DNA of 64,000 nt from the NCBI GenBank assembly GCA_965117015.1, contig OZ220747.1:2708247-2772246 (forward strand), in the 5' to 3' direction. The notes under the pieces are model-generated. The model was not told the DNA's origin and did no database searches. It was given only the letters and a program-made list of their open reading frames with translations. The stretch is from Acidimicrobiales bacterium (lineage in GTDB: Bacteria > Actinomycetota > Acidimicrobiia > Acidimicrobiales > Aldehydirespiratoraceae). Every line of letters starts with the position of its first letter. Position 1 is the stretch's first letter. This document shows, in pieces, positions 7,881 to 29,337 of the stretch. Both the position numbers and the translations under genes were made by a program.

Positions 7881-9233
7881 GTGCATGTCATCGTTGTGGG
7901 GGCCGGAGAGGTCGGCTCCTACGTGGCCGCCCGGCTCAGCCGTGAGCGCCACAACGTCGCGGTGGTGGACATCGACGCCGACCGCCTCCGCAAGATCGGC
8001 GCCGACCTCGACGTGCTGACGGTGGAGGGCAGCGGCACCCATCCCAGCGTGCTCTCCGACGCCGGCCTCGACAACTGCGAGTTGGTCGTGGCGGTCACCA
8101 GCAAGGACGAGGTGAACCTGGTCGTGTCGCTGATCGCCAAGCAGGGGGGCGTGGACAAGACCATCGTTCGCATCGAGGCCGAGGAGTTGCGCGGCAAGGC
8201 CTCGGCGGAGCTGAGGAAGACATTCGGCGCCGACCTGGTGATCGATCCCGACTACGCGACCGCGGAGCGGATCCTTGACCTGCTCGACTACCCCGGGGCG
8301 TCGGAGATTGCGGTCATGGCCCACGGTGAGGCCATCGTCATGGGCGCCCGCCTCGAGGCCGATGCCCCGATCGTGGGCCGGAGGCTGTCGGAGATCGCGG
8401 CCGAGTACGAGCCCGACTGGGAGTTCATGGTCGGCTCGATCTCCCGGGGCGAATACACCTACATACCCCGAACCGACTACACGCTGCTCGAGGACGACCT
8501 GGTGCGGGTGGTGTGCAAGCGGCGGGCCCGCCACCGGGTGGCCAAACTCCTGGGCCTGGGTACCGGAGCGGTCCGCCACGTGCTGCTGCTCGGCGGGGGC
8601 CGCACCGCCGAGATCCTCGCGGCCCGGCTGGTGTCAAGGGGGGTCGAGGTGGTCATCGTCGAGCGCGACGCCCGGCGGGCCCTGGAGTTGGCCGAGCACC
8701 TGGACGGTGTGCAGGTGTTCGAGGGCGACATAACCGACGCCGACCTCCTCGAGGAGACCAACCTCGGCCGGTTCGACGCGGTGGCTGCGTTGACCGGCGA
8801 GGACGAATCGAACATCCTGGCCTGCCTCTACGCCAAGTCCGTGGGCGCGTCGGAGACGATCGCGGTGGTGCACAAGCTGGCCCTGCTGTCGCTGCTGGAC
8901 TCCGCGGGTGTCGATGTGTCCCTGTCGCCCCGCACCGCCACTGCCGACGGGGTGATGCGTTTCGTGCGCGGCGATGTGGCCGCGGTGACGACCTTCCTGG
9001 AGTCCGACGCCGAGGTCCTGGAGCTCGAGGTGGAGAAGGGCAGCCCGGCCGACGAGGCTCTCGTGAAGGACCTCAAGCTGCCCAAGGGCGTGCTCATCGG
9101 GGCCATTGTGCGCGACGGCAAGCCGCAGATCGCCCGCGGCCGGAGCCGGCTGCGCGGACGCGACCATGTGGTCGCCTTCGCCACCCCGGGCTCGGCTCGG
9201 GAGGTCCATCGGCTGTTGACGTGCGACGACTAG
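7881..9233 (+). CDS. trkA: Trk potassium uptake system NAD-binding subunit TrkA
   Basis: 450 aa with two RCK/Rossmann halves (VVGAGEVG and LLGGGRTA). GTG start. Confidence 0.9.
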   Translation: MHVIVVGAGEVGSYVAARLSRERHNVAVVDIDADRLRKIGADLDVLTVEGSGTHPSVLSDAGLDNCELVVAVTSKDEVNLVVSLIAKQGGVDKTIVRIEAEELRGKASAELRKTFGADLVIDPDYATAERILDLLDYPGASEIAVMAHGEAIVMGARLEADAPIVGRRLSEIAAEYEPDWEFMVGSISRGEYTYIPRTDYTLLEDDLVRVVCKRRARHRVAKLLGLGTGAVRHVLLLGGGRTAEILAARLVSRGVEVVIVERDARRALELAEHLDGVQVFEGDITDADLLEETNLGRFDAVAALTGEDESNILACLYAKSVGASETIAVVHKLALLSLLDSAGVDVSLSPRTATADGVMRFVRGDVAAVTTFLESDAEVLELEVEKGSPADEALVKDLKLPKGVLIGAIVRDGKPQIARGRSRLRGRDHVVAFATPGSAREVHRLLTCDD

Positions 9234-23679: not shown

Positions 23680-24279
23680 TTAGGCGTGGCGCCTGGTGAC
23701 GAGCGCAGCCCCGCCGAGCAGGACTACCGCCGCCAGGGTGGCGGCCAGCGGGACGGCCACGCTGTTGCCGTCGGATCCGGCCGTGCCGCCGAAGCCGGTC
23801 TCAGCTGCACCCTCCGGAGCCATGTCGTCGCCCATGTCGTCGCCCATGTCCTCCGCGATGAAGAGGATTGGAGCAGCGCTGTCCTCAGTGCTCGCGGCAT
23901 CTCCGGCGCCGAACGCGAAGTTGGCCGGTACGTCGTGGGTGATCTCGGCCGTGAAGGTGCCATCACCGCCCACAGGGATGGGCGCGCCCAGGGGTGCGAG
24001 GATGCAGTCTTCCTGACCCATGCCCTCCAAAGCGGCCACGATCATGTCGGTTGGCGTCGCGGTCGTGAACTGCTCGCCGGGGACGGTGCAGGGCACGATG
24101 AAGACGATCAGGCCGGGACTCCAGCCCGATCCGGTGAGCGTGAAGGTGTAGGTCCCCGGTCCTTCCACGGCCGGCGGGTCTGCTGTGAGCAACGGTCCGT
24201 CCTGAGCCGAGGCCTGGCTGGTCAGCACCAACAGGGCCAGCACGCTCACGATGGCCGTCAGCGCCATGATTCTCTTCAT
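23680..24279 (-). CDS. sortase-substrate-like cell-surface protein, paralogue 1
   Basis: Signal peptide MKRIMALTAIVSVLALLVLTSQASA, a two-Cys domain of about 100 aa, and a DMGDDMGDDM tract. The C-terminal sorting signal is PEGAAETG, then a spacer, a hydrophobic helix and TRRHA. Confidence 0.8.
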   Translation of the reverse strand: MKRIMALTAIVSVLALLVLTSQASAQDGPLLTADPPAVEGPGTYTFTLTGSGWSPGLIVFIVPCTVPGEQFTTATPTDMIVAALEGMGQEDCILAPLGAPIPVGGDGTFTAEITHDVPANFAFGAGDAASTEDSAAPILFIAEDMGDDMGDDMAPEGAAETGFGGTAGSDGNSVAVPLAATLAAVVLLGGAALVTRRHA

Positions 24280-24373
24280 CAGTTCTGTCCTTTCGTGGAG
24301 CTAGCAGCTCTACCTGTACCTATACAGCCCCCGCTGCACGCGCTGTAGGCACGCGCAACCGCAACTGCGGGCG

Positions 24374-24379
24374 ATTATA
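24374..24379 (-). promoter_or_regulatory. -10 hexamer TATAAT about 95 nt upstream of surface-protein paralogue 1
   Basis: Plus strand reads ATTATA at 24374-24379. The homologous positions upstream of paralogues 2 and 3 read TATACT (25181-25186) and TATCCT (26292-26297). Confidence 0.4.
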
Positions 24380-24410
24380 CACACGCGTGTCCTGCCGGGT
24401 GAGGTAACGC

Positions 24411-24488
24411 GACTGCGGCAGCGACCATGAAAGCCGCTGCCGCAGTCCGCAGTCTTGCCGCCCGGGCTCGGTGTCCGTTACAGACTCC
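24411..24488 (-). pseudogene. remnant of the sortase gene 5' end (start codon lost) downstream of surface-protein paralogue 2
   Basis: Aligns by eye with 23577-23654, the sortase start and signal-peptide coding region. The CAT start complement is replaced (gttacagact versus gccatgaact). The hairpin CTGCGGCAGCG/CGCTGCCGCAG is retained at 24413-24445. Confidence 0.7.
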
Positions 24489-24512
24489 AGCGCCCGGCGG
24501 GTTGGTTTGTCG

Positions 24513-25082
24513 TTAGCTGTGGCGTCGAGCGACCAGGGCTGTTCCGCCGAGCAGGGCCACGGCCGCGAGGGTGGCAGCCAGCGGGACGGCCACGCTGTTG
24601 CCGTCGGATCCGGCGGTGCCGCCGAAGCCGGTCTCGGCGGCACCTTCGGGCGCCATGTCGTCGCCCATGTCGTCCATCGGCTCGCCGATCTTCACGAGGG
24701 CGAGGGCAGCGGCCGAGGGTTCCGCGGTGAACACCAGTATCACGAGCCCTTCGGCCGGAACGCTGACGGTCCTCGATGTCGAGAATGACCCTCCTGGAGC
24801 TGAGACGGCTGCACCCATGTCACTAATGAGGTCGGGGCAGCTCGCGAGCGTCGTCGCTTGATCCAGGGCGGCAGGTATGACGCCTCCGAAGCCAGGGCAT
24901 GCTGTGATTGAGGGGTCGGCTTGCCAGCCGCTGCCGGAGATCGTCACCGTGTGGTCGCCCGCCGCGCTGACGTACTCCGGATCTACCGAAGCGGACGGCT
25001 CGCCCTGTGCAGATGCCTGGCTTGCCAGCACAAACAGGGCCAACACACTCACCACAGCCGTTAGCGCCATGATTCTCTTCAT
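24513..25082 (-). CDS. sortase-substrate-like cell-surface protein, paralogue 2
   Basis: Nearly identical signal peptide and C-terminal block (DDMGDDMAPEGAAETGFGGTAGSDGNSVAVPLAATLAAV...RRHS). The central domain has diverged. Confidence 0.8.
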   Translation of the reverse strand: MKRIMALTAVVSVLALFVLASQASAQGEPSASVDPEYVSAAGDHTVTISGSGWQADPSITACPGFGGVIPAALDQATTLASCPDLISDMGAAVSAPGGSFSTSRTVSVPAEGLVILVFTAEPSAAALALVKIGEPMDDMGDDMAPEGAAETGFGGTAGSDGNSVAVPLAATLAAVALLGGTALVARRHS

Positions 25083-25226
25083 CTGATCTGTTCCTTTCGA
25101 GGGTTGAAGCAGCCTTGTTAGTGCCGCTTGCGAGCCCGCGCCGCATGCGCAATCGGCGCACGCAACCGCAAGTCCGGGGGAGTATACCCATGCTCGGTCA
25201 GCGGGTGATTGAGTGTTCCTTGACGC

Positions 25227-25304
25227 GGCTGCGGCAGCGACACGAATGCCGCTGCCGCAGTCGTCAGTTGGTTGCTCGGGGATGGGCGCTCGTTATGAAC
25301 TCCC
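25227..25304 (-). pseudogene. second remnant of the sortase gene 5' end (ATG mutated to ATA) downstream of surface-protein paralogue 3
   Basis: cgttatgaactccc aligns with cgccatgaactccc at the sortase start. The hairpin CTGCGGCAGCG/CGCTGCCGCAG is retained at 25229-25260 with a different loop. Confidence 0.65.
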
Positions 25305-25325
25305 TACCAGAGAGCGGTTGATCTG

Positions 25326-26234
25326 TCAGGCGTTACGCCGGGTGATGATCACAGCCCCGCCCAGTAGGACTACCGCCGCCAGCGTTGCGGCTAGCGGGAC
25401 GGCGATGCTGTTGCCGTCGGAGCCGGCGCTGCCGCCGAAGCCCGTGGCTGCGGGGCCCTCGGGAACCATGTCGTCGCCCATGTCGTCGGCCATGTCGTCG
25501 GCCATGTCGTCGCCCATGTCATCAGCCATGTCATCAGCCATGTCATCAGCCATGTCGTCGCCCATGTCGTCGCCCATGTCGTCGTCGGCCATGTCGTCGT
25601 CGGCCATGTCATCAGCCATGTCGTCGTCGGCCATGTCCTCTTCCTCGGCAGGGGCCTCCTCTTCAGCCGGGGCTTCCTCCTCGGCAGGGGCCTCCTCTTC
25701 AGCCGGGGCTTCCTCCTCGGCAGGGGCCTCCTCTTCAGCCGGGGCTTCCTCCTCGGCCGGGGCCTCCTCTTCCGCGGGCTCTTCCTCGGCTGGGGCCTCC
25801 TCTTCCGCGGGCTCTTCCTCTTCGACCATCGGCTCTCCGACCTTGATGACGACAGTGGCGCCGGCCGGCGGGCTTGAAGTGAACACGAGGAGCACGAGGC
25901 CTTCAGCTGGAACGTCCACGGTCACGGATTGCGTGAAGGACCCGCCGCTAATCGTTGCAGTCACGGGAGGAGCGAACACGTCCGGTGCACAGTTCGCGAT
26001 GACAGCTCCCTGATCGGGGTCTTCAGGCGCTACGCCGCGCCAGCCAGGGCACTTCGCGATTCCGGGGTTCGCCCCCCAGCCTGAGCCTGACACGGTGACC
26101 GTATGACTGCCGGCCGAGCTGACGTACTCCGGGTCGACTGTTGCCGTCGGCTCGCCCTGGGCGCCTGCCTGGGTCGTCAGCGCGAATAGGGCCAACAGAC
26201 TCACTGCGGCTGTCAGTGCCATGATCTTCTTCAT
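25326..26234 (-). CDS. sortase-substrate-like cell-surface protein, paralogue 3, with expanded acidic repeats
   Basis: Start taken at MKKIMALTAAV (26234), preceded by AAAGGA. Same domain and C-terminal signal (PEGPAATGFGGSAGSDGNS...TRRNA), plus long (EEAPAEE)n and (DDM[AG])n tracts. Confidence 0.8.
   Translation of the reverse strand: MKKIMALTAAVSLLALFALTTQAGAQGEPTATVDPEYVSSAGSHTVTVSGSGWGANPGIAKCPGWRGVAPEDPDQGAVIANCAPDVFAPPVTATISGGSFTQSVTVDVPAEGLVLLVFTSSPPAGATVVIKVGEPMVEEEEPAEEEAPAEEEPAEEEAPAEEEAPAEEEAPAEEEAPAEEEAPAEEEAPAEEEAPAEEEDMADDDMADDMADDDMADDDMGDDMGDDMADDMADDMADDMGDDMADDMADDMGDDMVPEGPAATGFGGSAGSDGNSIAVPLAATLAAVVLLGGAVIITRRNA
25467..25634 (-). repeat. 12/15-nt coding microsatellite-like repeat (CATGTCRTCRSC)n encoding (DDM[AG])n
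   Basis: Reading the plus strand directly shows about 13 consecutive catgtc-initiated units. Confidence 0.9.
25635..25826 (-). repeat. 36-nt (three perfect copies) plus 33-nt (x2) coding tandem repeats encoding (EEAPAEE)n
   Basis: The unit cctcggcaggggcctcctcttcagccggggcttcct is repeated exactly from about 25643. Variant units follow. Confidence 0.9.
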
Positions 26235-26347
26235 CTGGTCTGTCCTTTCATGGAGCCAGCAGTGTTGTGCTAGCACGCGTCACTCGCGGGGAGGATACAC
26301 ATCGGATTGGGGCCGGGTCCACCAGAACGACCGGGGCCGGGACGCGA

Positions 26348-26907
26348 CGGAGCCCCGAGTAGCCTCCCGGCTTGCGCCGCTTAACTTCTCGGGGCTCCGA
26401 TTGCGCCTATCCACCGACCGCCCAATCCCGTCGGATTCTGCGGTACTCCGGGACACTTCCCCGTATCCGGTTCAGTGCCCTGACCCCCGCCTCGGACGAC
26501 TCCGTGGCGTTGGCCTGAATCACCCGGCGGTACCCGTCGGCACCTCCGAAGACTCCGGTTCTCCCCGTTCCCCGTCGGGATCGGACTCGACCCGGTGCCT
26601 CGGCGACACCCTCACCTTGAGGCGGATTCCGGTGACTCCCTCGCTCACCCGGCGGTGTGCTCGGTTGTCGCCGGGCCTCCCGGCGAGGTGACCCTCCTCC
26701 GACCTTGCTGTCACCCTCCCCCGTCGGGGATTCCTACCGCTAGCTCGGAGGAGAACCTCCGTGTCCCCGGCTGACCCACCGGCTCCTGCGAACCGGTCTG
26801 GCTGGCTGGGTGTCCTCTGCGGACCGCTCCATCGACTCCGCTCCGCTGCTTCGGGCCGAGGCCCTTGGCTGCTGATCCGGTGTCTCCGTCGCTGCTCACT
26901 TCGGACG
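26348..26907 (-). ncRNA. candidate structured non-coding RNA or long leader (family unknown)
   Basis: No protein-like frame and no codon-position GC bias in this region. A promoter lies at 26914-26942. Four hairpins share a C(GACG)G loop on the minus strand: 26424-26437, 26529-26544, 26569-26580 and 26717-26730. There is also a CGGAGG-UUCU-CCUCCG hairpin (26746-26761). A terminal 12-bp stem (26348-26359 / 26388-26399) has a loop that can form GNRA-capped (GCAA or GGGA) mini-helices only on the minus strand. The ends are estimates. Confidence 0.45.
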
Positions 26908-26913
26908 CTGGGC

Positions 26914-26942
26914 ATCTTGGGGGGTCCGCTCCGGGTTGTCAA
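26914..26942 (-). promoter_or_regulatory. putative sigma-70-type promoter TTGACA-N17-CAAGAT
   Basis: Minus-strand TTGACA at 26942-26937, a 17-nt spacer, then CAAGAT at 26919-26914. It sits at the edge of a locally AT-richer patch. Confidence 0.45.
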
Positions 26943-26952
26943 CCCTAAAACG

Positions 26953-26994
26953 CGAAATCCCCATCGAAATCCCGAGCATTTTCGAGAAATCCCC
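26953..26994 (-). promoter_or_regulatory. three direct repeats of GGGATTTC (plus strand GAAATCCC) just upstream of the -35; candidate transcription-factor boxes
   Basis: GAAATCCC starts at 26954, 26966 and 26986 (spacing 12 and 20 nt), immediately upstream of the TTGACA in the direction of transcription. Confidence 0.5.
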
Positions 26995-27062
26995 AAGCGG
27001 CGCCCAGTTATGCACAGAGCGGTCACAGTCTGGTGTCGATTCGGGGGCTCCGAACGGCCCGA

Positions 27063-27824
27063 TCAGGCCTCCCAGTGGCCCCGCTCGACCATCACCCGGC
27101 GCAATACCGAGGGCCGGTCGGTCATGATGCCGTCCACCCCCATGTCGAGGAGGCGGTTCATCTCAGCCGGCTCGTCGATGGTCCAGACATGGACCGCGAC
27201 GCCGTGGCGATGGGCCGCGGCCAGCATCGCGGGCCGCACCAGCGTCAGGCCCTTGGCCCGCACCGGCACCTGGGCGGCGTGGAAGTCGAAGGACGCCGGC
27301 ACCCCTAGCCGGGCCGAGGCGGCCAGCAGGCGGGTGATGCCGCGGGGTCCGGCGCCGACGCACAGTGTTGCCCCGATCCGGTCGCGCACCTGCCGGGTGC
27401 GCCGGTCCGAGAAGGAGCACACGCACACCCGCTCGACTGCGCCGGTTCGCCGGAGCACCTCCACCAGGGGCCCGACCGCGGCGTCGCTCTTGGGATCGAT
27501 GTTGATCCTGGTGTCCGGCAGCTCCTCCAGGAGTTCGTCGAGCAGCATGATCGGGTCGGTGCCGGCCACCCGGGCTTCCCGGACCCGGCTCCAGGGGAGG
27601 TCGCCCACGACGCCGCTGCCGTCGGTGACCCGGTCCAGGGAGTCGTCGTGGAAGGCCACCGCGACGCCGTCGGCGGTGGCGTGGACGTCGGTCTCCACAT
27701 GGGTGTAGCCCAGGTCCACGGCATGGCGGAAGGCCCGCAGCGTGTTCTCGGGGAACTCTTCGGCCCCGCCCCGGTGAGCGAAGGCGATGGGCCCGTCCAC
27801 GTCCAGGTACGGGTGGCGCGCCAT
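27063..27824 (-). CDS. glycerophosphodiester phosphodiesterase family protein
   Basis: FAHRGG, EFPENTLRAF and VETDVHATADG motifs. Start taken at MARHPYLD (27824); the tracked ORF extends to 27863. Confidence 0.85.
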   Translation of the reverse strand: MARHPYLDVDGPIAFAHRGGAEEFPENTLRAFRHAVDLGYTHVETDVHATADGVAVAFHDDSLDRVTDGSGVVGDLPWSRVREARVAGTDPIMLLDELLEELPDTRINIDPKSDAAVGPLVEVLRRTGAVERVCVCSFSDRRTRQVRDRIGATLCVGAGPRGITRLLAASARLGVPASFDFHAAQVPVRAKGLTLVRPAMLAAAHRHGVAVHVWTIDEPAEMNRLLDMGVDGIMTDRPSVLRRVMVERGHWEA

Positions 27825-27903
27825 GGCTGCACCGTAGTGGGTGCAATAGGTGCAGGTGGCCACTTATCCACAGGTGTCCACCGCCGGCGATAGCGTTGTG
27901 GAC

Positions 27904-29337
27904 ATGCAGCGCCGCACGAAGATCGTCGCCACCATCGGTCCGGCCAGCGAGGACGAGTCCACGCTGCGGGACCTGATGGCCGCCGGAATGGACGTGGCCC
28001 GCATCGGGCTGGCCCACGGAACCCTCGACGAGGCCATCGAGCGCTACCAGCGCATCCGCCGGGTCGCCGAGCAGGAGAGCCGGCCGGTGGGGATCCTGGT
28101 GGACCTTCCCGGACCCAAGGTACGGGCCGCCAGCTTCGGCGAGGATCCCGTGCGGTTCCACTCCGACAGCACCGTCGAGTTGGTGGTCGGCAATGACCGC
28201 TCGACCGACAGCGTGGTGGAGGTGGACTACGAGGGCCTGATGGACGACGTGCTGGTCGGGGACACGCTCGACGTCGGCGACGGGCGGGTCGTGCTCGACG
28301 TCATCGACAAGGGCGGCGACCGTCTCAAGGTCCGCGTCATCCACGGCGGCGTCCTGTCGGGCTGCCCCGGCGTGCACATCCCCGCCGACCGGCTGCGAAT
28401 GTCCACCCCGACCCCCAGCGACTTCGTGGCCCTCGACGCCTTCATCGAGCTCGGCGTGGACATGGTGGCCATATCGTTCGTGCGCTCCGCCCACGACATC
28501 CGGCGGGTCGGCACCGAGCCCCATCCCCGGGGCCCGCTGGTGATCGCCAAGATCGAGACCCGGGCGGCGGTGCAGAACCTGGCCGGCATCATCGACACCG
28601 CCGGGGCGATCATGGTGGCCCGCGGCGACCTCGGCAGCGAGTGCAGCATCGAAGAGCTGCCGCACCTCCAGAAGCAGATCATCCAGCAGTGCATCGCCGG
28701 CGGCCGCCCGGTCATCACCGCCACCCAGATGCTCGAGTCGATGGTGTCGCGCCCGTCGCCCACCCGGGCCGAGGCCAGCGACGTGGCCAACGCCGTGTTC
28801 GACGGATCCTCGGCGCTGATGCTCTCGGGCGAGACCGCCGTCGGGACCGACCCTGCGAACGTGGTCCGCACCATGGGCCGCATCGCCCAGCGGGCCGACG
28901 AGGAGTTCGACTACGAGCTGTGGGCCGAGCGCCTCGCCGAGCTGCGCATGACCGACGACTCCACCCACGACGCCGCATCGATCACCGACGCCATGACCAT
29001 GGCGGCCTGGCGGGCCGCCGACGGGCTGGGGATCTCCACCATCCTGGCCATCTCCGGCACCGGCTTCACCGTGCGGTCCATGGCCCGGTTCCGGCCCCAT
29101 GCGCGGATCATCGGCCTGTCCCACAACGCCAGGACCGTGCAGCAGCTCACCCTGAGCTGGGGCACTACGCCGGTGCTGGTGAAGGACCTGGGCTCCAACG
29201 AGGAGATGGTCCGCCAGGCGGTGGCGTTGGCCCGCGACCGGGACTTCGCCCGCTCCGGCGAGATCGTCGGGATCCTGGCCGGAGCGGACAACCGGTCGCG
29301 CAGCGCCAACGTGCTCCGCCTGGAGCGCGTCCCCTAG
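27904..29337 (+). CDS. pyk: pyruvate kinase
   Basis: MQRRTKIVATIGPAS start, IAKIETRAAV, MVARGDLG and TQMLESM motifs. Confidence 0.95.
   Translation: MQRRTKIVATIGPASEDESTLRDLMAAGMDVARIGLAHGTLDEAIERYQRIRRVAEQESRPVGILVDLPGPKVRAASFGEDPVRFHSDSTVELVVGNDRSTDSVVEVDYEGLMDDVLVGDTLDVGDGRVVLDVIDKGGDRLKVRVIHGGVLSGCPGVHIPADRLRMSTPTPSDFVALDAFIELGVDMVAISFVRSAHDIRRVGTEPHPRGPLVIAKIETRAAVQNLAGIIDTAGAIMVARGDLGSECSIEELPHLQKQIIQQCIAGGRPVITATQMLESMVSRPSPTRAEASDVANAVFDGSSALMLSGETAVGTDPANVVRTMGRIAQRADEEFDYELWAERLAELRMTDDSTHDAASITDAMTMAAWRAADGLGISTILAISGTGFTVRSMARFRPHARIIGLSHNARTVQQLTLSWGTTPVLVKDLGSNEEMVRQAVALARDRDFARSGEIVGILAGADNRSRSANVLRLERVP

Follow-up and report, generated by a model that had tools for sequence, protein, structure and literature searches.

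A candidate structured non-coding RNA gene of Acidimicrobiia preceded by a phased array of DnaA-box-like sequences

Introduction

To our knowledge, large structured bacterial RNAs beyond ribosomal RNA (rRNA), RNase P, transfer-messenger RNA (tmRNA), signal recognition particle RNA and 6S RNA are rare, and each of them has opened new biology. The described systems closest to the locus reported here are the sequestering RNAs CsrB and RsmZ, the large RNAs OLE, GOLLD, ROOL and raiA, the RNA-polymerase-binding 6S RNA and actinobacterial Ms1 and, with regard to the promoter, the genes controlled by DnaA in E. coli and B. subtilis. In the oriC of E. coli, DnaA oligomers extend from a strong box over low-affinity sites of the same orientation spaced by ~11 bp. 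We analyzed a 64,000-nucleotide stretch of an Acidimicrobiales genome (contig OZ220747.1, positions 2,708,247 to 2,772,246; hereafter the window, numbered from its first letter) and found, between a glycerophosphodiester phosphodiesterase (GDPD) gene and a set of surface-protein genes, a conserved minus-strand region that is very probably an independent structured non-coding RNA (ncRNA) gene. It would represent a new family within an already known general type, that of stand-alone structured regulatory RNAs, with unusual size, modularity and promoter. The RNA appears conserved throughout the Acidimicrobiia, a class that abounds in oceans, sponges, soils and wastewater and for which we know of almost no experimental RNA biology.

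Like CsrB and RsmZ, the candidate appears to be a stand-alone gene with its own predicted promoter and terminator and a product that would act in trans, and it carries many copies of a short motif on hairpins (here the tip motif CCGNCGGG, six times, together with an excess of CGGAG), the copy number and length varying between lineages in both cases. It differs from them in that there is no sequence or Rfam relationship, that the motif is an invariant 8-nt hairpin tip and not an A(N)GGA loop, that the GGAG copies lie partly in stems and that the hairpins are missing in short forms; we know of no CsrA-like partner in Acidimicrobiia. With OLE, GOLLD, ROOL and raiA it shares the size class (~570 nt), many conserved helices, GNRA and UUCG loops, restriction to a lineage and modular variable regions, whereas the lack of an Rfam match, the host class, the lack of a phage or mobile context and the DnaA-box-like promoter array set it apart. 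This array resembles DnaA-controlled promoters and the E. coli oriC in that a consensus box is followed by weaker 9-mers of the same orientation, ~11 bp apart, up to the promoter; unlike in those systems, the target would be an ncRNA gene and not dnaA, nrd, sda or an unwinding element, there is no origin, and the proximal boxes are poor. In the literature that could be searched, neither a DnaA-controlled regulatory RNA of such a kind nor an earlier example of a phased oriC-like DnaA-type array before an ncRNA gene turned up.

Results

Conservation of a gene-free stretch without coding signature

Relatives of the locus were collected by a scan with the GDPD protein, keeping one genome per species, which gave 80 loci, and by a pattern scan of metagenomes, which gave 120 loci. 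Of the latter, ~26 were true hairpin homologues; the remainder, about three quarters of the 120, were chance matches in coding sequence (IscA-type GGGCSG and others), which were discarded by eye and with R1, a covariance model of the 3' hairpin. Single loci are referred to by L numbers. The close loci belong to metagenome-assembled genomes of Acidimicrobiia, many of them labelled 'Candidatus Aldehydirespirator' and several from sponges.

The initial annotation had marked positions 26282-27062 as a region without open reading frames (ORFs) in which a novel structured RNA or a long leader could be encoded on the minus strand. The gene-free stretch was confirmed and its bounds were revised, the conserved unit reaching ~27027 upstream and 26235-26339 belonging to the downstream gene. 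Periodicity of GC content by codon position was absent from 26200-27060 (0.60-0.73 in all three phases, vs 0.92/0.5/0.75 in the GDPD gene), which agrees with the earlier statement that no frame is protein-like or has a third-position GC (GC3) bias. A homologous region, whose presence in relatives had been set beforehand as a test of the proposal, was found: ~700 nt (window ~27029 to ~26329) were 76-96% identical in ~33 close loci. The identity of the RNA to its relatives was 80-97%, compared with 69-90% at the third codon positions of GDPD, and the former exceeded the latter in 26 of 28 comparisons; the 3' flank was mostly 22-59% identical, up to 84% in a few close relatives. Among the pairwise indels, 172 of 191 (90%) were not multiples of three, and the variable columns were spread as 112/103/101 over the three phases, without three-base periodicity. 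The indels and phases indicate that the region is neither coding nor decayed coding sequence; a decayed protein gene, also named beforehand as a possible refutation, was contradicted by the frame-breaking indels and the missing periodicity. These comparisons support purifying selection on the region without a coding signature.

The conserved block opens at CAGCGUCCGAAGUGAGCAG (alignment A1), and the predicted start of the RNA is A26909 or G26908 in a conserved CAGC. Conservation ceases after UCGCGUCC (26340-26347), a few bases past the 3' hairpin. The RNA would consist of 40% G, 29% C, 20% A and 11% U (~61% purine), so that the description of the sequence downstream of the promoter as G-rich on the minus strand was correct, and the plus-strand GC skew across the region was -0.15 to -0.18. 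Folding of the minus strand gave a minimum-free-energy z-score of -5.9, and folding of the plus strand one of -2.65. Judged from its sequence, this is an independent RNA gene with a selected, structured product.

A conserved sigma-70-type promoter

The TTGACA and CAAGAT hexamers proposed by the initial annotation lie exactly at its coordinates (Table 1). In alignment A1 (29 close loci), TTGAC and A.GAT were invariant and the 17-nt spacer was freely variable, and the layout TTGAC-N17-19-CANNNT was found in >45 loci, distant ones included. We took conserved hexamers 16-19 nt apart with a variable spacer as the mark of a sigma-70-type promoter, and the element has this form, its activity being predicted. 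A scan of the locus for consensus promoters and terminators called no promoter or terminator, because CAAGAT matches TATAAT at only 3/6 positions and no U-tract is present; the comparative conservation overrules the negative scan. The pattern of conservation at the -35 and -10 elements indicates that transcription is selected.

Consensus fold of the RNA

The fold was predicted from an alignment of 34 long-form sequences, including the distant clade L041, L150 and L163 (~60% identical). RNAalifold gave 115 consensus pairs in 29 helices, with 97.6% of the consensus cells paired. Covariation, likewise set beforehand as a test, supported the fold: 31 pairs changed on both sides, compared with 12.0 +/- 2.6 in column shuffles (0/500 as high) and 3-14 in slid controls with partners shifted by 1-3 columns, structure and counts being taken from the same alignment. 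Stems show compensatory changes such as GGUGCC..GGUACC to GAUACC..GGUAUC and CCC-GACG-GGG to CCU-GACG-AGG. G-U, G-C and A-U pairs alternate frequently, indicating that the minus strand is the folded strand.

The fold consists of a 5' domain, a second hairpin, a central expansion domain with long-range helices, five hairpins with CC-GNCG-GG tips and a 3' hairpin (Table 1). The 5' start, CAGC-G..CG.AA..GAGC, is recognisable in distant soil members. The central domain is closed by pairing of 26760-26770 with 26411-26420 and of 26746-26749 with 26523-26526; column pairs 180/544 and 181/543 are double-changed in the L041 clade. Helix 10 competes with a local hairpin, CGGAGG-UUCU-CCUCCG (26746-26761), already listed in the initial annotation. 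Some unpaired stretches are invariant, for example GGUCAGCCGGGGACACGG and CCGGAUACGG.

Repeated hairpins with invariant tips

Four copies of the 8-mer CCCGTCGG, each at a hairpin tip, had been noted before, and both positions (26427, 26533, 26571 and 26720) and hairpins were confirmed; no other copy lies within 2 kb. As evidence on its own the cluster is weak: 6 of 60 dinucleotide shuffles contained an 8-mer that recurs four times in 300 nt, and CCCGTCGG is at expectation over the whole window (12 vs 13.8 expected). The cluster is supported by the degenerate tip motif CCGNCGGG, which is present in six copies on the RNA strand vs 0.4 expected (none of 2000 shuffles reached five), and by the tips, which are invariant across the 34 aligned relatives on stems that covary. 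Five of the six copies sit at hairpin tips; the four GACG hairpins counted earlier are real, and a fifth, at 26644-26659 with a GCCG loop, has to be added (H1-H5 in Table 1). The tip motif on covarying stems was also found in the distant loci L041, L150 and L203. In the stem at 26529-26544, the G-U pair reported by the initial annotation is real and alternates with G-C and A-U (columns 413/422); the counts were GC 22, GU 8 and AU 2 at one pair and GC 26, AU 3 and GU 3 at another.

The exposed repeated element of the RNA is CCGNCGGG, whose CCGNCGG tip is quasi-palindromic, and tip-to-tip pairing of such hairpins is conceivable. Besides, CGGAG is enriched 2.7-fold family-wide (52 vs 19.3 expected, 15 lineages), and the RNA of the window has 28 GGA, 10 CGGAG vs 3.3 expected, and six GGAGG.

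The 3' hairpin

No part of the RNA is conserved as widely as the 3' hairpin. It had been described as a terminal 12-bp stem; the stem is there and its size was underestimated, the element being a 16-pair hairpin with one purine-purine mismatch. Model R1 found exactly one match per locus, with 58-82 bits in sense and 17-38 bits in antisense orientation, and scored the copy of the window at 79.9 bits on the minus strand vs 35.5 bits on the plus strand. The hairpin is a probable terminator. In the lower-GC relatives L041, L150, L163, L136, L147, L086, L178 and L203 it is followed by a U-tract, which indicates that it is a terminator there; in the window, some read-through into the surface-protein gene is possible.

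Locus L032 (6757-6874) has only a remnant of the 3' hairpin, directly after the GDPD stop codon, without promoter or body and with an R1 score of 34 bits; it resembles a relic that has been retained as a terminator for GDPD.

Length variants and gene order in relatives

The relatives cover marine, sponge, soil and freshwater Acidimicrobiia and are ~130-590 nt long. The soil and freshwater members, of which the soil forms were placed in the class by their named neighbours, have upstream boxes, TTGAC-N17-19-CANNNT, a start near CAGCCGGACG.AAACGAGCGG and the same 3' hairpin around purine-rich bodies with GNRA and UUCG hairpins, and measure ~130-310 nt. In the 'Aldehydirespirator' loci L024 and L029 we found ~260-nt versions with the 5' domain and the 3' hairpin and without the central ~400 nt. 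The family is thus of modular build, with constant 5' domain and 3' hairpin and a central domain of a few dozen to ~400 nt, and the CCGNCGGG hairpins are part of a lineage-specific expansion. The expansion is old, since it is also present in the distant L041, L150, L163 and L203.

The conserved neighbourhood, a chromosomal position that the relatives often have in common, is pyk, GDPD, a gene for an SLT-like protein and the RNA. In L202 (1-9458), L203 (1-9452) and L041 (600-6000) the order is pyk, (transglutaminase-like), GDPD, SLT_2-like and the RNA. Beyond the RNA come a Zn-ribbon ORF of ~60 aa (CxxC...CxxC) in convergent orientation, then a FAD/NAD(P) oxidoreductase with an Amino_oxidase fold, whose representatives in the class are 65-89% identical, and GGDEF/EAL, GT2, GT4 and AftD. 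This order looks ancestral; in the window clade, the SLT-like gene and the oxidoreductase have disappeared from this position and surface-protein genes have been added. In L014, L020, L022 and L023 the RNA has changed its place or orientation with respect to GDPD. The gene downstream of the RNA encodes surface-protein paralogues in ~17 loci, the FAD/NAD(P) oxidoreductase in 11 loci of that clade as well as in L136, a distant relative, pyk in L029 and a UvrD2-like helicase in three soil loci, and it is convergent in L024, L098, L122, L149, L156, L165 and L190 (at least seven lineages).

The three soil loci are L104 (2514-2817), L131 (1215-1577) and L186 (reverse, ~8119-8446). Their members of ~200-310 nt lie downstream of an SRPBCC gene and 30-70 nt upstream of the UvrD2-like helicase gene (UvrD and HRDC), and L104 and L186 use a TATCTT -10; a cis role of the RNA is possible in these loci. 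A 4.4-kb contig binned as 'Gemmatimonadetes bacterium' (L021, VXMI01000102.1) holds pyk, GDPD and the start of the RNA at 82-83% identity to the window and is probably a mis-binned Acidimicrobiia contig.

A phased array of DnaA-box-like sequences upstream of the promoter

Upstream of the -35 element lies a series of 9-mers resembling DnaA boxes (Table 1). We called a DnaA box any 9-mer matching the established consensus TTATNCACA or TTGTCCACA, and used TGTGNAYAA, the reverse complement of TTRTNCACA, as the relaxed consensus. TGTGCATAA fits the 9-mer consensus at 9/9 positions and is a predicted binding site. In alignment A1 this box reads TGTG[C/A/G]A[T/C]AA in 29 loci, its variation being confined to the degenerate positions of the DnaA box, and GGGGATTTC is invariant. 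The boxes have the indices 35, 46, 56, 67, 87 and 99, with the -35 at 120, a spacing in multiples of ~10.5 nt; the array occupies ~75 bp and ends ~10 nt upstream of the -35. Counting 9-mers with at least 8/9 matches to TGTGNAYAA, we found 23 in 3.1 kb upstream of the -35 (24 loci), all of the same orientation, which is 7.4 per kb vs 0.15 per kb elsewhere in the same loci, a ~48-fold enrichment. They recur at -32, -74, -85 and -96 relative to the -35, the -74 box in nine lineages, and equivalent arrays (TGGGGACA, TGTGGACAA and TGCGGACAA) are present in distant relatives.

In the window this is the only cluster of such boxes, and only three perfect boxes occur in the 64 kb (27864, 27008 and 24375), all within 3.5 kb. 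Control of the RNA promoter through the array is, in our estimate, a little short of an even chance, and that DnaA specifically is the controlling protein is possible with the chances against it.

Two of the perfect boxes lie outside the array. The canonical box CCTGTGGATAAC (27864-27872, minus strand, with 27896-27905 nearby) is in the divergent pyk/GDPD intergenic region and is kept in at least 20 relatives; its conservation at the pyk/GDPD promoter suggests that this type of box is in regulatory use in the clade. In B. subtilis, pyk has been genetically linked to replication control. The other, TGTGTATAA (24375-24383, minus strand), lies upstream of a surface-protein gene and matches TGTGNAYAA at 9/9 positions. 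Like TGTGTATCC and, in relatives, TGTGTATAC, likewise upstream of surface-protein genes, it could be an extended -10 (TGnTATAcT) or a further DnaA-type box.

Comparison with known RNA families

Initially, no signature of RNase P, tmRNA, signal recognition particle RNA, 6S RNA, cobalamin riboswitches or group II introns had been recognised, and the database searches gave the same picture: Rfam 15 (4227 models) had no match at gathering score in the 64-kb window, nothing meaningful at E<10 in 26100-27200 and no match overlapping the RNA in 20 related loci. ARAGORN found no transfer RNA or tmRNA at the locus, no match to a plasmid, phage or mobile origin was obtained, and literature searches by topic and by signature sequence returned nothing relevant to the RNA. 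In L024, L029, L089, L098 and L104, Rfam gave only a sub-threshold match to the mycobacterial F6 small RNA (RF01791; 18.4, 25.3 and 22.7 bits vs a gathering score of 46), which was rejected. The 3' hairpin resembles the F6 hairpin (AGCCCCG.G..G, ~21 nt, C..C.CGGGGCU), but only the hairpin aligns, and the RNA here is 130-590 nt long with TTGAC-N17-CANNNT. F6 is ~100 nt long and is transcribed from a SigF promoter. The results support an undescribed RNA family, in the class Acidimicrobiia so far as sampled.

Table 1. Positions of the RNA gene, its parts and the adjoining features in the window
Feature	Position	Strand	Remarks
Predicted RNA gene, ~570 nt	26340-26909	minus	alignments A1, A2, A5; both ends predicted
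Predicted sigma-70-type promoter	26914-26942	minus	-35 TTGACA 26937-26942, 17-nt spacer, -10 CAAGAT 26914-26919
Weak box TGTGACCGC	27019-27027	minus	upstream 9-mer, 11 nt from TGTGCATAA
Box TGTGCATAA	27008-27016	minus	9/9 to relaxed DnaA-box consensus TGTGNAYAA
Weaker box TGGGCGCCG	26998-27006	minus	phased array
Weaker boxes TGGGGATTT	26987-26995 and 26955-26963	minus	phased array
Weaker box TCGGGATTT	26967-26975	minus	phased array
5' domain, long irregular hairpin	26812-26906	minus	closed by GUCC/GGAC; retained in ~260-nt L024, L029
Hairpin GCCAGACCGGUUCG / GGAGCCGGUGGGU, then invariant GGUCAGCCGGGGACACGG	26774-26802	minus	helix 7; 11 pairs, 97.5% paired, G-U/A-U/G-C alternation
Central expansion domain	26411-26770	minus	long-range helices 8-10; absent from short forms
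H1, UCCCC-GACG-GGGGA	26717-26730	minus	helix 12; CCGACGGG at tip; L041-clade stem CCU-GACG-AGG, compensatory
H2, CACACC-GCCG-GGUGAG	26644-26659	minus	helix 16; variant copy CCGCCGGG; 100% paired
H3, UCCC-GACG-GGGA	26569-26580	minus	helix 19
H4, GGUGCC-GACG-GGUACC	26529-26544	minus	helix 20; one G-U pair; L041 equivalent GAUACC..GGUAUC
H5, AAUCC-GACG-GGAUU	26424-26437	minus	helix 26; closing pair CG 16, AU 7, GU 3, GC 1
3' hairpin CGGAGCCCCGAG-A-AGUU...GGCU-A-CUCGGGGCUCCG	26348-26399	minus	apical CGGC-GCAA-GCCG, GNRA loop 26372-26375
GDPD gene (glycerophosphodiester phosphodiesterase)	27063-27863	minus	Pfam GDPD
Surface-protein gene	25326-26234	minus	ATG 26232-26234; first of three tandem secreted paralogues
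Upstream region of surface-protein gene	26232-26301	minus	separate from RNA; contains TGTGTATCC, AAAGGA, ATG
TGTGTATCC, possible extended -10 of surface-protein gene	26293-26301	minus	putative promoter role
AAAGGA, Shine-Dalgarno-like	26243-26248	minus	precedes surface-protein ATG

Discussion

The initial proposal of a novel structured minus-strand RNA with its own promoter is upheld by the promoter-type conservation, the strand-specific G-U pairs, the compensatory changes, the strand bias of R1 and the lack of a match to a known family. We favour an account in which this independent RNA is joined to a mechanism, and on balance consider the whole probable, its mechanistic parts less so than the RNA gene. 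In this account the RNA would act in trans, and its transcription would be governed by DnaA, or by another protein polymerising along one face of the DNA, on the phased TGTGNAYAA/TGGGGAYNN boxes. The CCGNCGGG-tipped hairpins and the CGGAG excess would serve as repeated docking sites, and the RNA would bind a protein or another RNA multivalently, as a sponge or scaffold, and would not act by a single short antisense seed. Multivalent binding is suggested by the repeated invariant tips, the 2.7-fold CGGAG excess and the accordion-like variation in length, a combination of repeated tips, motif excess and length variation that is akin to sequestering RNAs such as CsrB.

Several observations weigh against parts of this account. 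The covariation stems in large part from a single divergent clade of three sequences (L041, L150 and L163), in which many double changes represent one event, and the tested structure was derived from the alignment on which it was tested, which inflates the contrast with the controls. Both ends of the RNA are predictions from sequence. No U-tract follows the hairpin of the window, being replaced by YCGCGUC there and in other high-GC members. The search pattern used for metagenomes imposed part of the hairpin sequence, and the bodies of the distant short forms could not be aligned to the long form (pairwise comparisons were not significant) or to one another, so that distant membership rests on promoter, 5' start, 3' hairpin and position. 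Concerning the array, the promoter-nearest TGGGGATTT boxes match the DnaA consensus at only 6/9 positions, and L104 and L186 have no boxes. Short forms (L024, L029 and most soil members) do without the CCGNCGGG hairpins, which therefore cannot carry the core function, and several GGAG motifs fall within predicted stems, whereas in CsrB the GGA motifs are in loops; dispensable hairpins and partly paired GGAG are contrary to a simple sponge model. A sponge or scaffold mechanism is rated as doubtful, with perhaps a minor share of the probability.

Other explanations differ in what they take the functional unit to be. The long-leader reading, also contained in the initial annotation, holds that the RNA is a cis-acting 5' leader or attenuator of the downstream gene, here the surface-protein gene (26234), with the 3' hairpin as a regulated terminator. 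The window clade always has a same-strand gene within 40-290 nt (surface protein or FAD oxidoreductase), the helicase of L104, L131 and L186 begins 30-70 nt after the hairpin, and the window hairpin is without a U-tract, all of which a leader would explain. Yet the downstream genes come from at least four unrelated families, are convergent in at least seven lineages (in L041, L202 and L203 the neighbour is the convergent Zn-ribbon ORF), and the RNA is conserved equally with or without each neighbour; the lower-GC members have hairpin and U-tract terminators, and the hairpin sequence is conserved far beyond what a terminator or attenuator needs. The downstream genes are, moreover, preceded by -10-like motifs of putative promoters, TGTGTATAC/CC for the surface-protein gene and TACACT for the oxidoreductase (columns 785-810). 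In ~12 loci with a surface-protein gene, TGTGTATAC/CC is found a short way upstream of that gene (A1 columns 801-810), and the ~28 nt immediately preceding the start codon of the gene are seen again upstream of a paralogue in L006. With a conserved terminal hairpin, U-tracts in relatives and variable or convergent downstream genes, the leader reading was not borne out, and we regard it as very unlikely. A role as a trans base-pairing regulator, or as a sponge that takes up C-rich small RNAs or the anti-Shine-Dalgarno end of 16S rRNA, is unlikely: here G-rich, GGAG-rich single strands would act and the iterated hairpins would be purely structural. The 40% G and ~61% purine of the RNA, the enrichment of CGGAG over 15 lineages, the six GGAGG of the window RNA and invariant unpaired stretches such as GGUCAGCCGGGGACACGG and CCGGAUACGG fit this idea; against it, several GGAG motifs are within predicted stems, ~570 nt and ~29 helices far exceed the needs of a seed-pairing small RNA, and invariant tips on covarying stems argue for recognition of the tips.

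An Acidimicrobiia counterpart of 6S RNA or Ms1, which would be abundant and stable and sequester RNA polymerase, is quite unlikely in our judgement. The RNA is structured, predicted to act in trans and has a strong-looking, highly conserved promoter, as 6S RNA and Ms1 presumably do, and neither of the two is reported for Acidimicrobiia in the searchable literature. Ms1 loci are typically flanked by an 'oxidoreductase', and the hallmark of their synteny is a HAD-IB hydrolase ('inhibition of morphological differentiation' protein) on one side (PMC9130861). Many relatives have a FAD oxidoreductase beside the RNA, a likeness to the Ms1 flank in name only, but no HAD-IB hydrolase was seen at any inspected locus, where the neighbours were GDPD, SLT-like, pyk, surface proteins, FAD oxidoreductase, SRPBCC and UvrD2. 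Rfam gave no 6S match (RF00013 and relatives) even at E<10, and the fold is multi-branched, with the 5' domain and the 3' hairpin closing separately, instead of the rod with a central bubble in which the two ends pair; search and fold thus exclude 6S RNA. The Ms1 of S. coelicolor (PMC9130861 supplement), which is C-rich whereas the RNA here is G-rich, had no similarity to any member (z -1.0 to 1.2), a comparison to be read with the fact that distant members are also unalignable mutually. The family length of ~130 to 590 nt fits neither RNA, the long forms being up to twice as long or more. That the functional unit is DNA, either a DnaA-box cluster (datA, DARS or origin-like) or an R-loop site, with an incidental transcript, is highly improbable. 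It would account for the phased arrays, for the three perfect boxes within 3.5 kb with none elsewhere in the 64 kb, and for a G-rich non-template strand, which would favour R-loops; yet the boxes make up only ~75 bp, and the other ~570 bp are conserved with strand-specific G-U pairs and compensatory changes, which means selection at the RNA level, just as the -35/-10 conservation implies selected transcription. The window has no GC-skew switch, no dnaA gene was present in the ~200 loci examined, and the element moves or inverts between closely related genomes. A replication origin was rejected on the same three points, the absence of a skew switch, the absence of dnaA nearby and mobility between related genomes. 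Finally, a decayed protein-coding gene or the mRNA of a small protein has almost no likelihood. Long stop-free stretches occur in each of the six frames, among them a minus-strand ORF of 168 codons (26520-27026), but such frames are expected at ~69% GC and are not conserved in frame, this ORF starts upstream of the promoter, the ORF products across the gene-free stretch are rich in Arg, Pro, Ser and Gly without GC3 bias, 90% of the indels break the frame and the substitutions are aperiodic. As far as sequence can show, a coding gene, a decayed gene and a small ORF are refuted.

Returning to the independent structured RNA, a wider interpretation, speculative and rather unlikely as a whole, is that it belongs to a new class of large RNAs that read the state of DnaA through an oriC-like array and act as multivalent scaffolds coupling replication to envelope or surface biogenesis. 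The quasi-palindromic CCGNCGG tips would capture a protein or pair mutually, and the coupling would be reflected in the conservation of the RNA among genes for the envelope and surface (SLT-like transglycosylase, glycosyltransferases, AftD and sortase-type surface proteins). With the array before an ncRNA promoter, a link between replication control and riboregulation can be tested directly, and the expansion domain, present in some members and absent from others beside the constant 5' domain and 3' hairpin, offers a natural dissection. The family could join Rfam and would fill an unexplained gap of ~0.6-1 kb in Acidimicrobiia annotations.

Neighbouring genes

The longest-ORF starts of GDPD (27863, minus strand) and of pyruvate kinase (27850, plus strand) overlap head to head (27850-27863). 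The true starts of GDPD and pyk are probably internal, leaving a short divergent promoter region with the DnaA box. On the other side of the RNA gene, the tandem secreted paralogues (23680-24279, 24513-25082 and 25326-26234) are all on the minus strand and span 23680-26234. All three begin with a signal peptide and share a conserved ~135-aa N-terminal domain without a Pfam match. They carry the acidic low-complexity repeats EEAPAEE and DDMADD, which give rise to 12- and 36-nt tandem DNA repeats at 25.46-25.77 kb. Their C-termini read PEG(P/A)A(A/E)TGFGG, followed by a hydrophobic helix and RR(H/N)(A/S), which we take to be a sortase-type (LAxTG-like) sorting signal. Related genomes hold 0 to 3 copies of the surface-protein paralogue.

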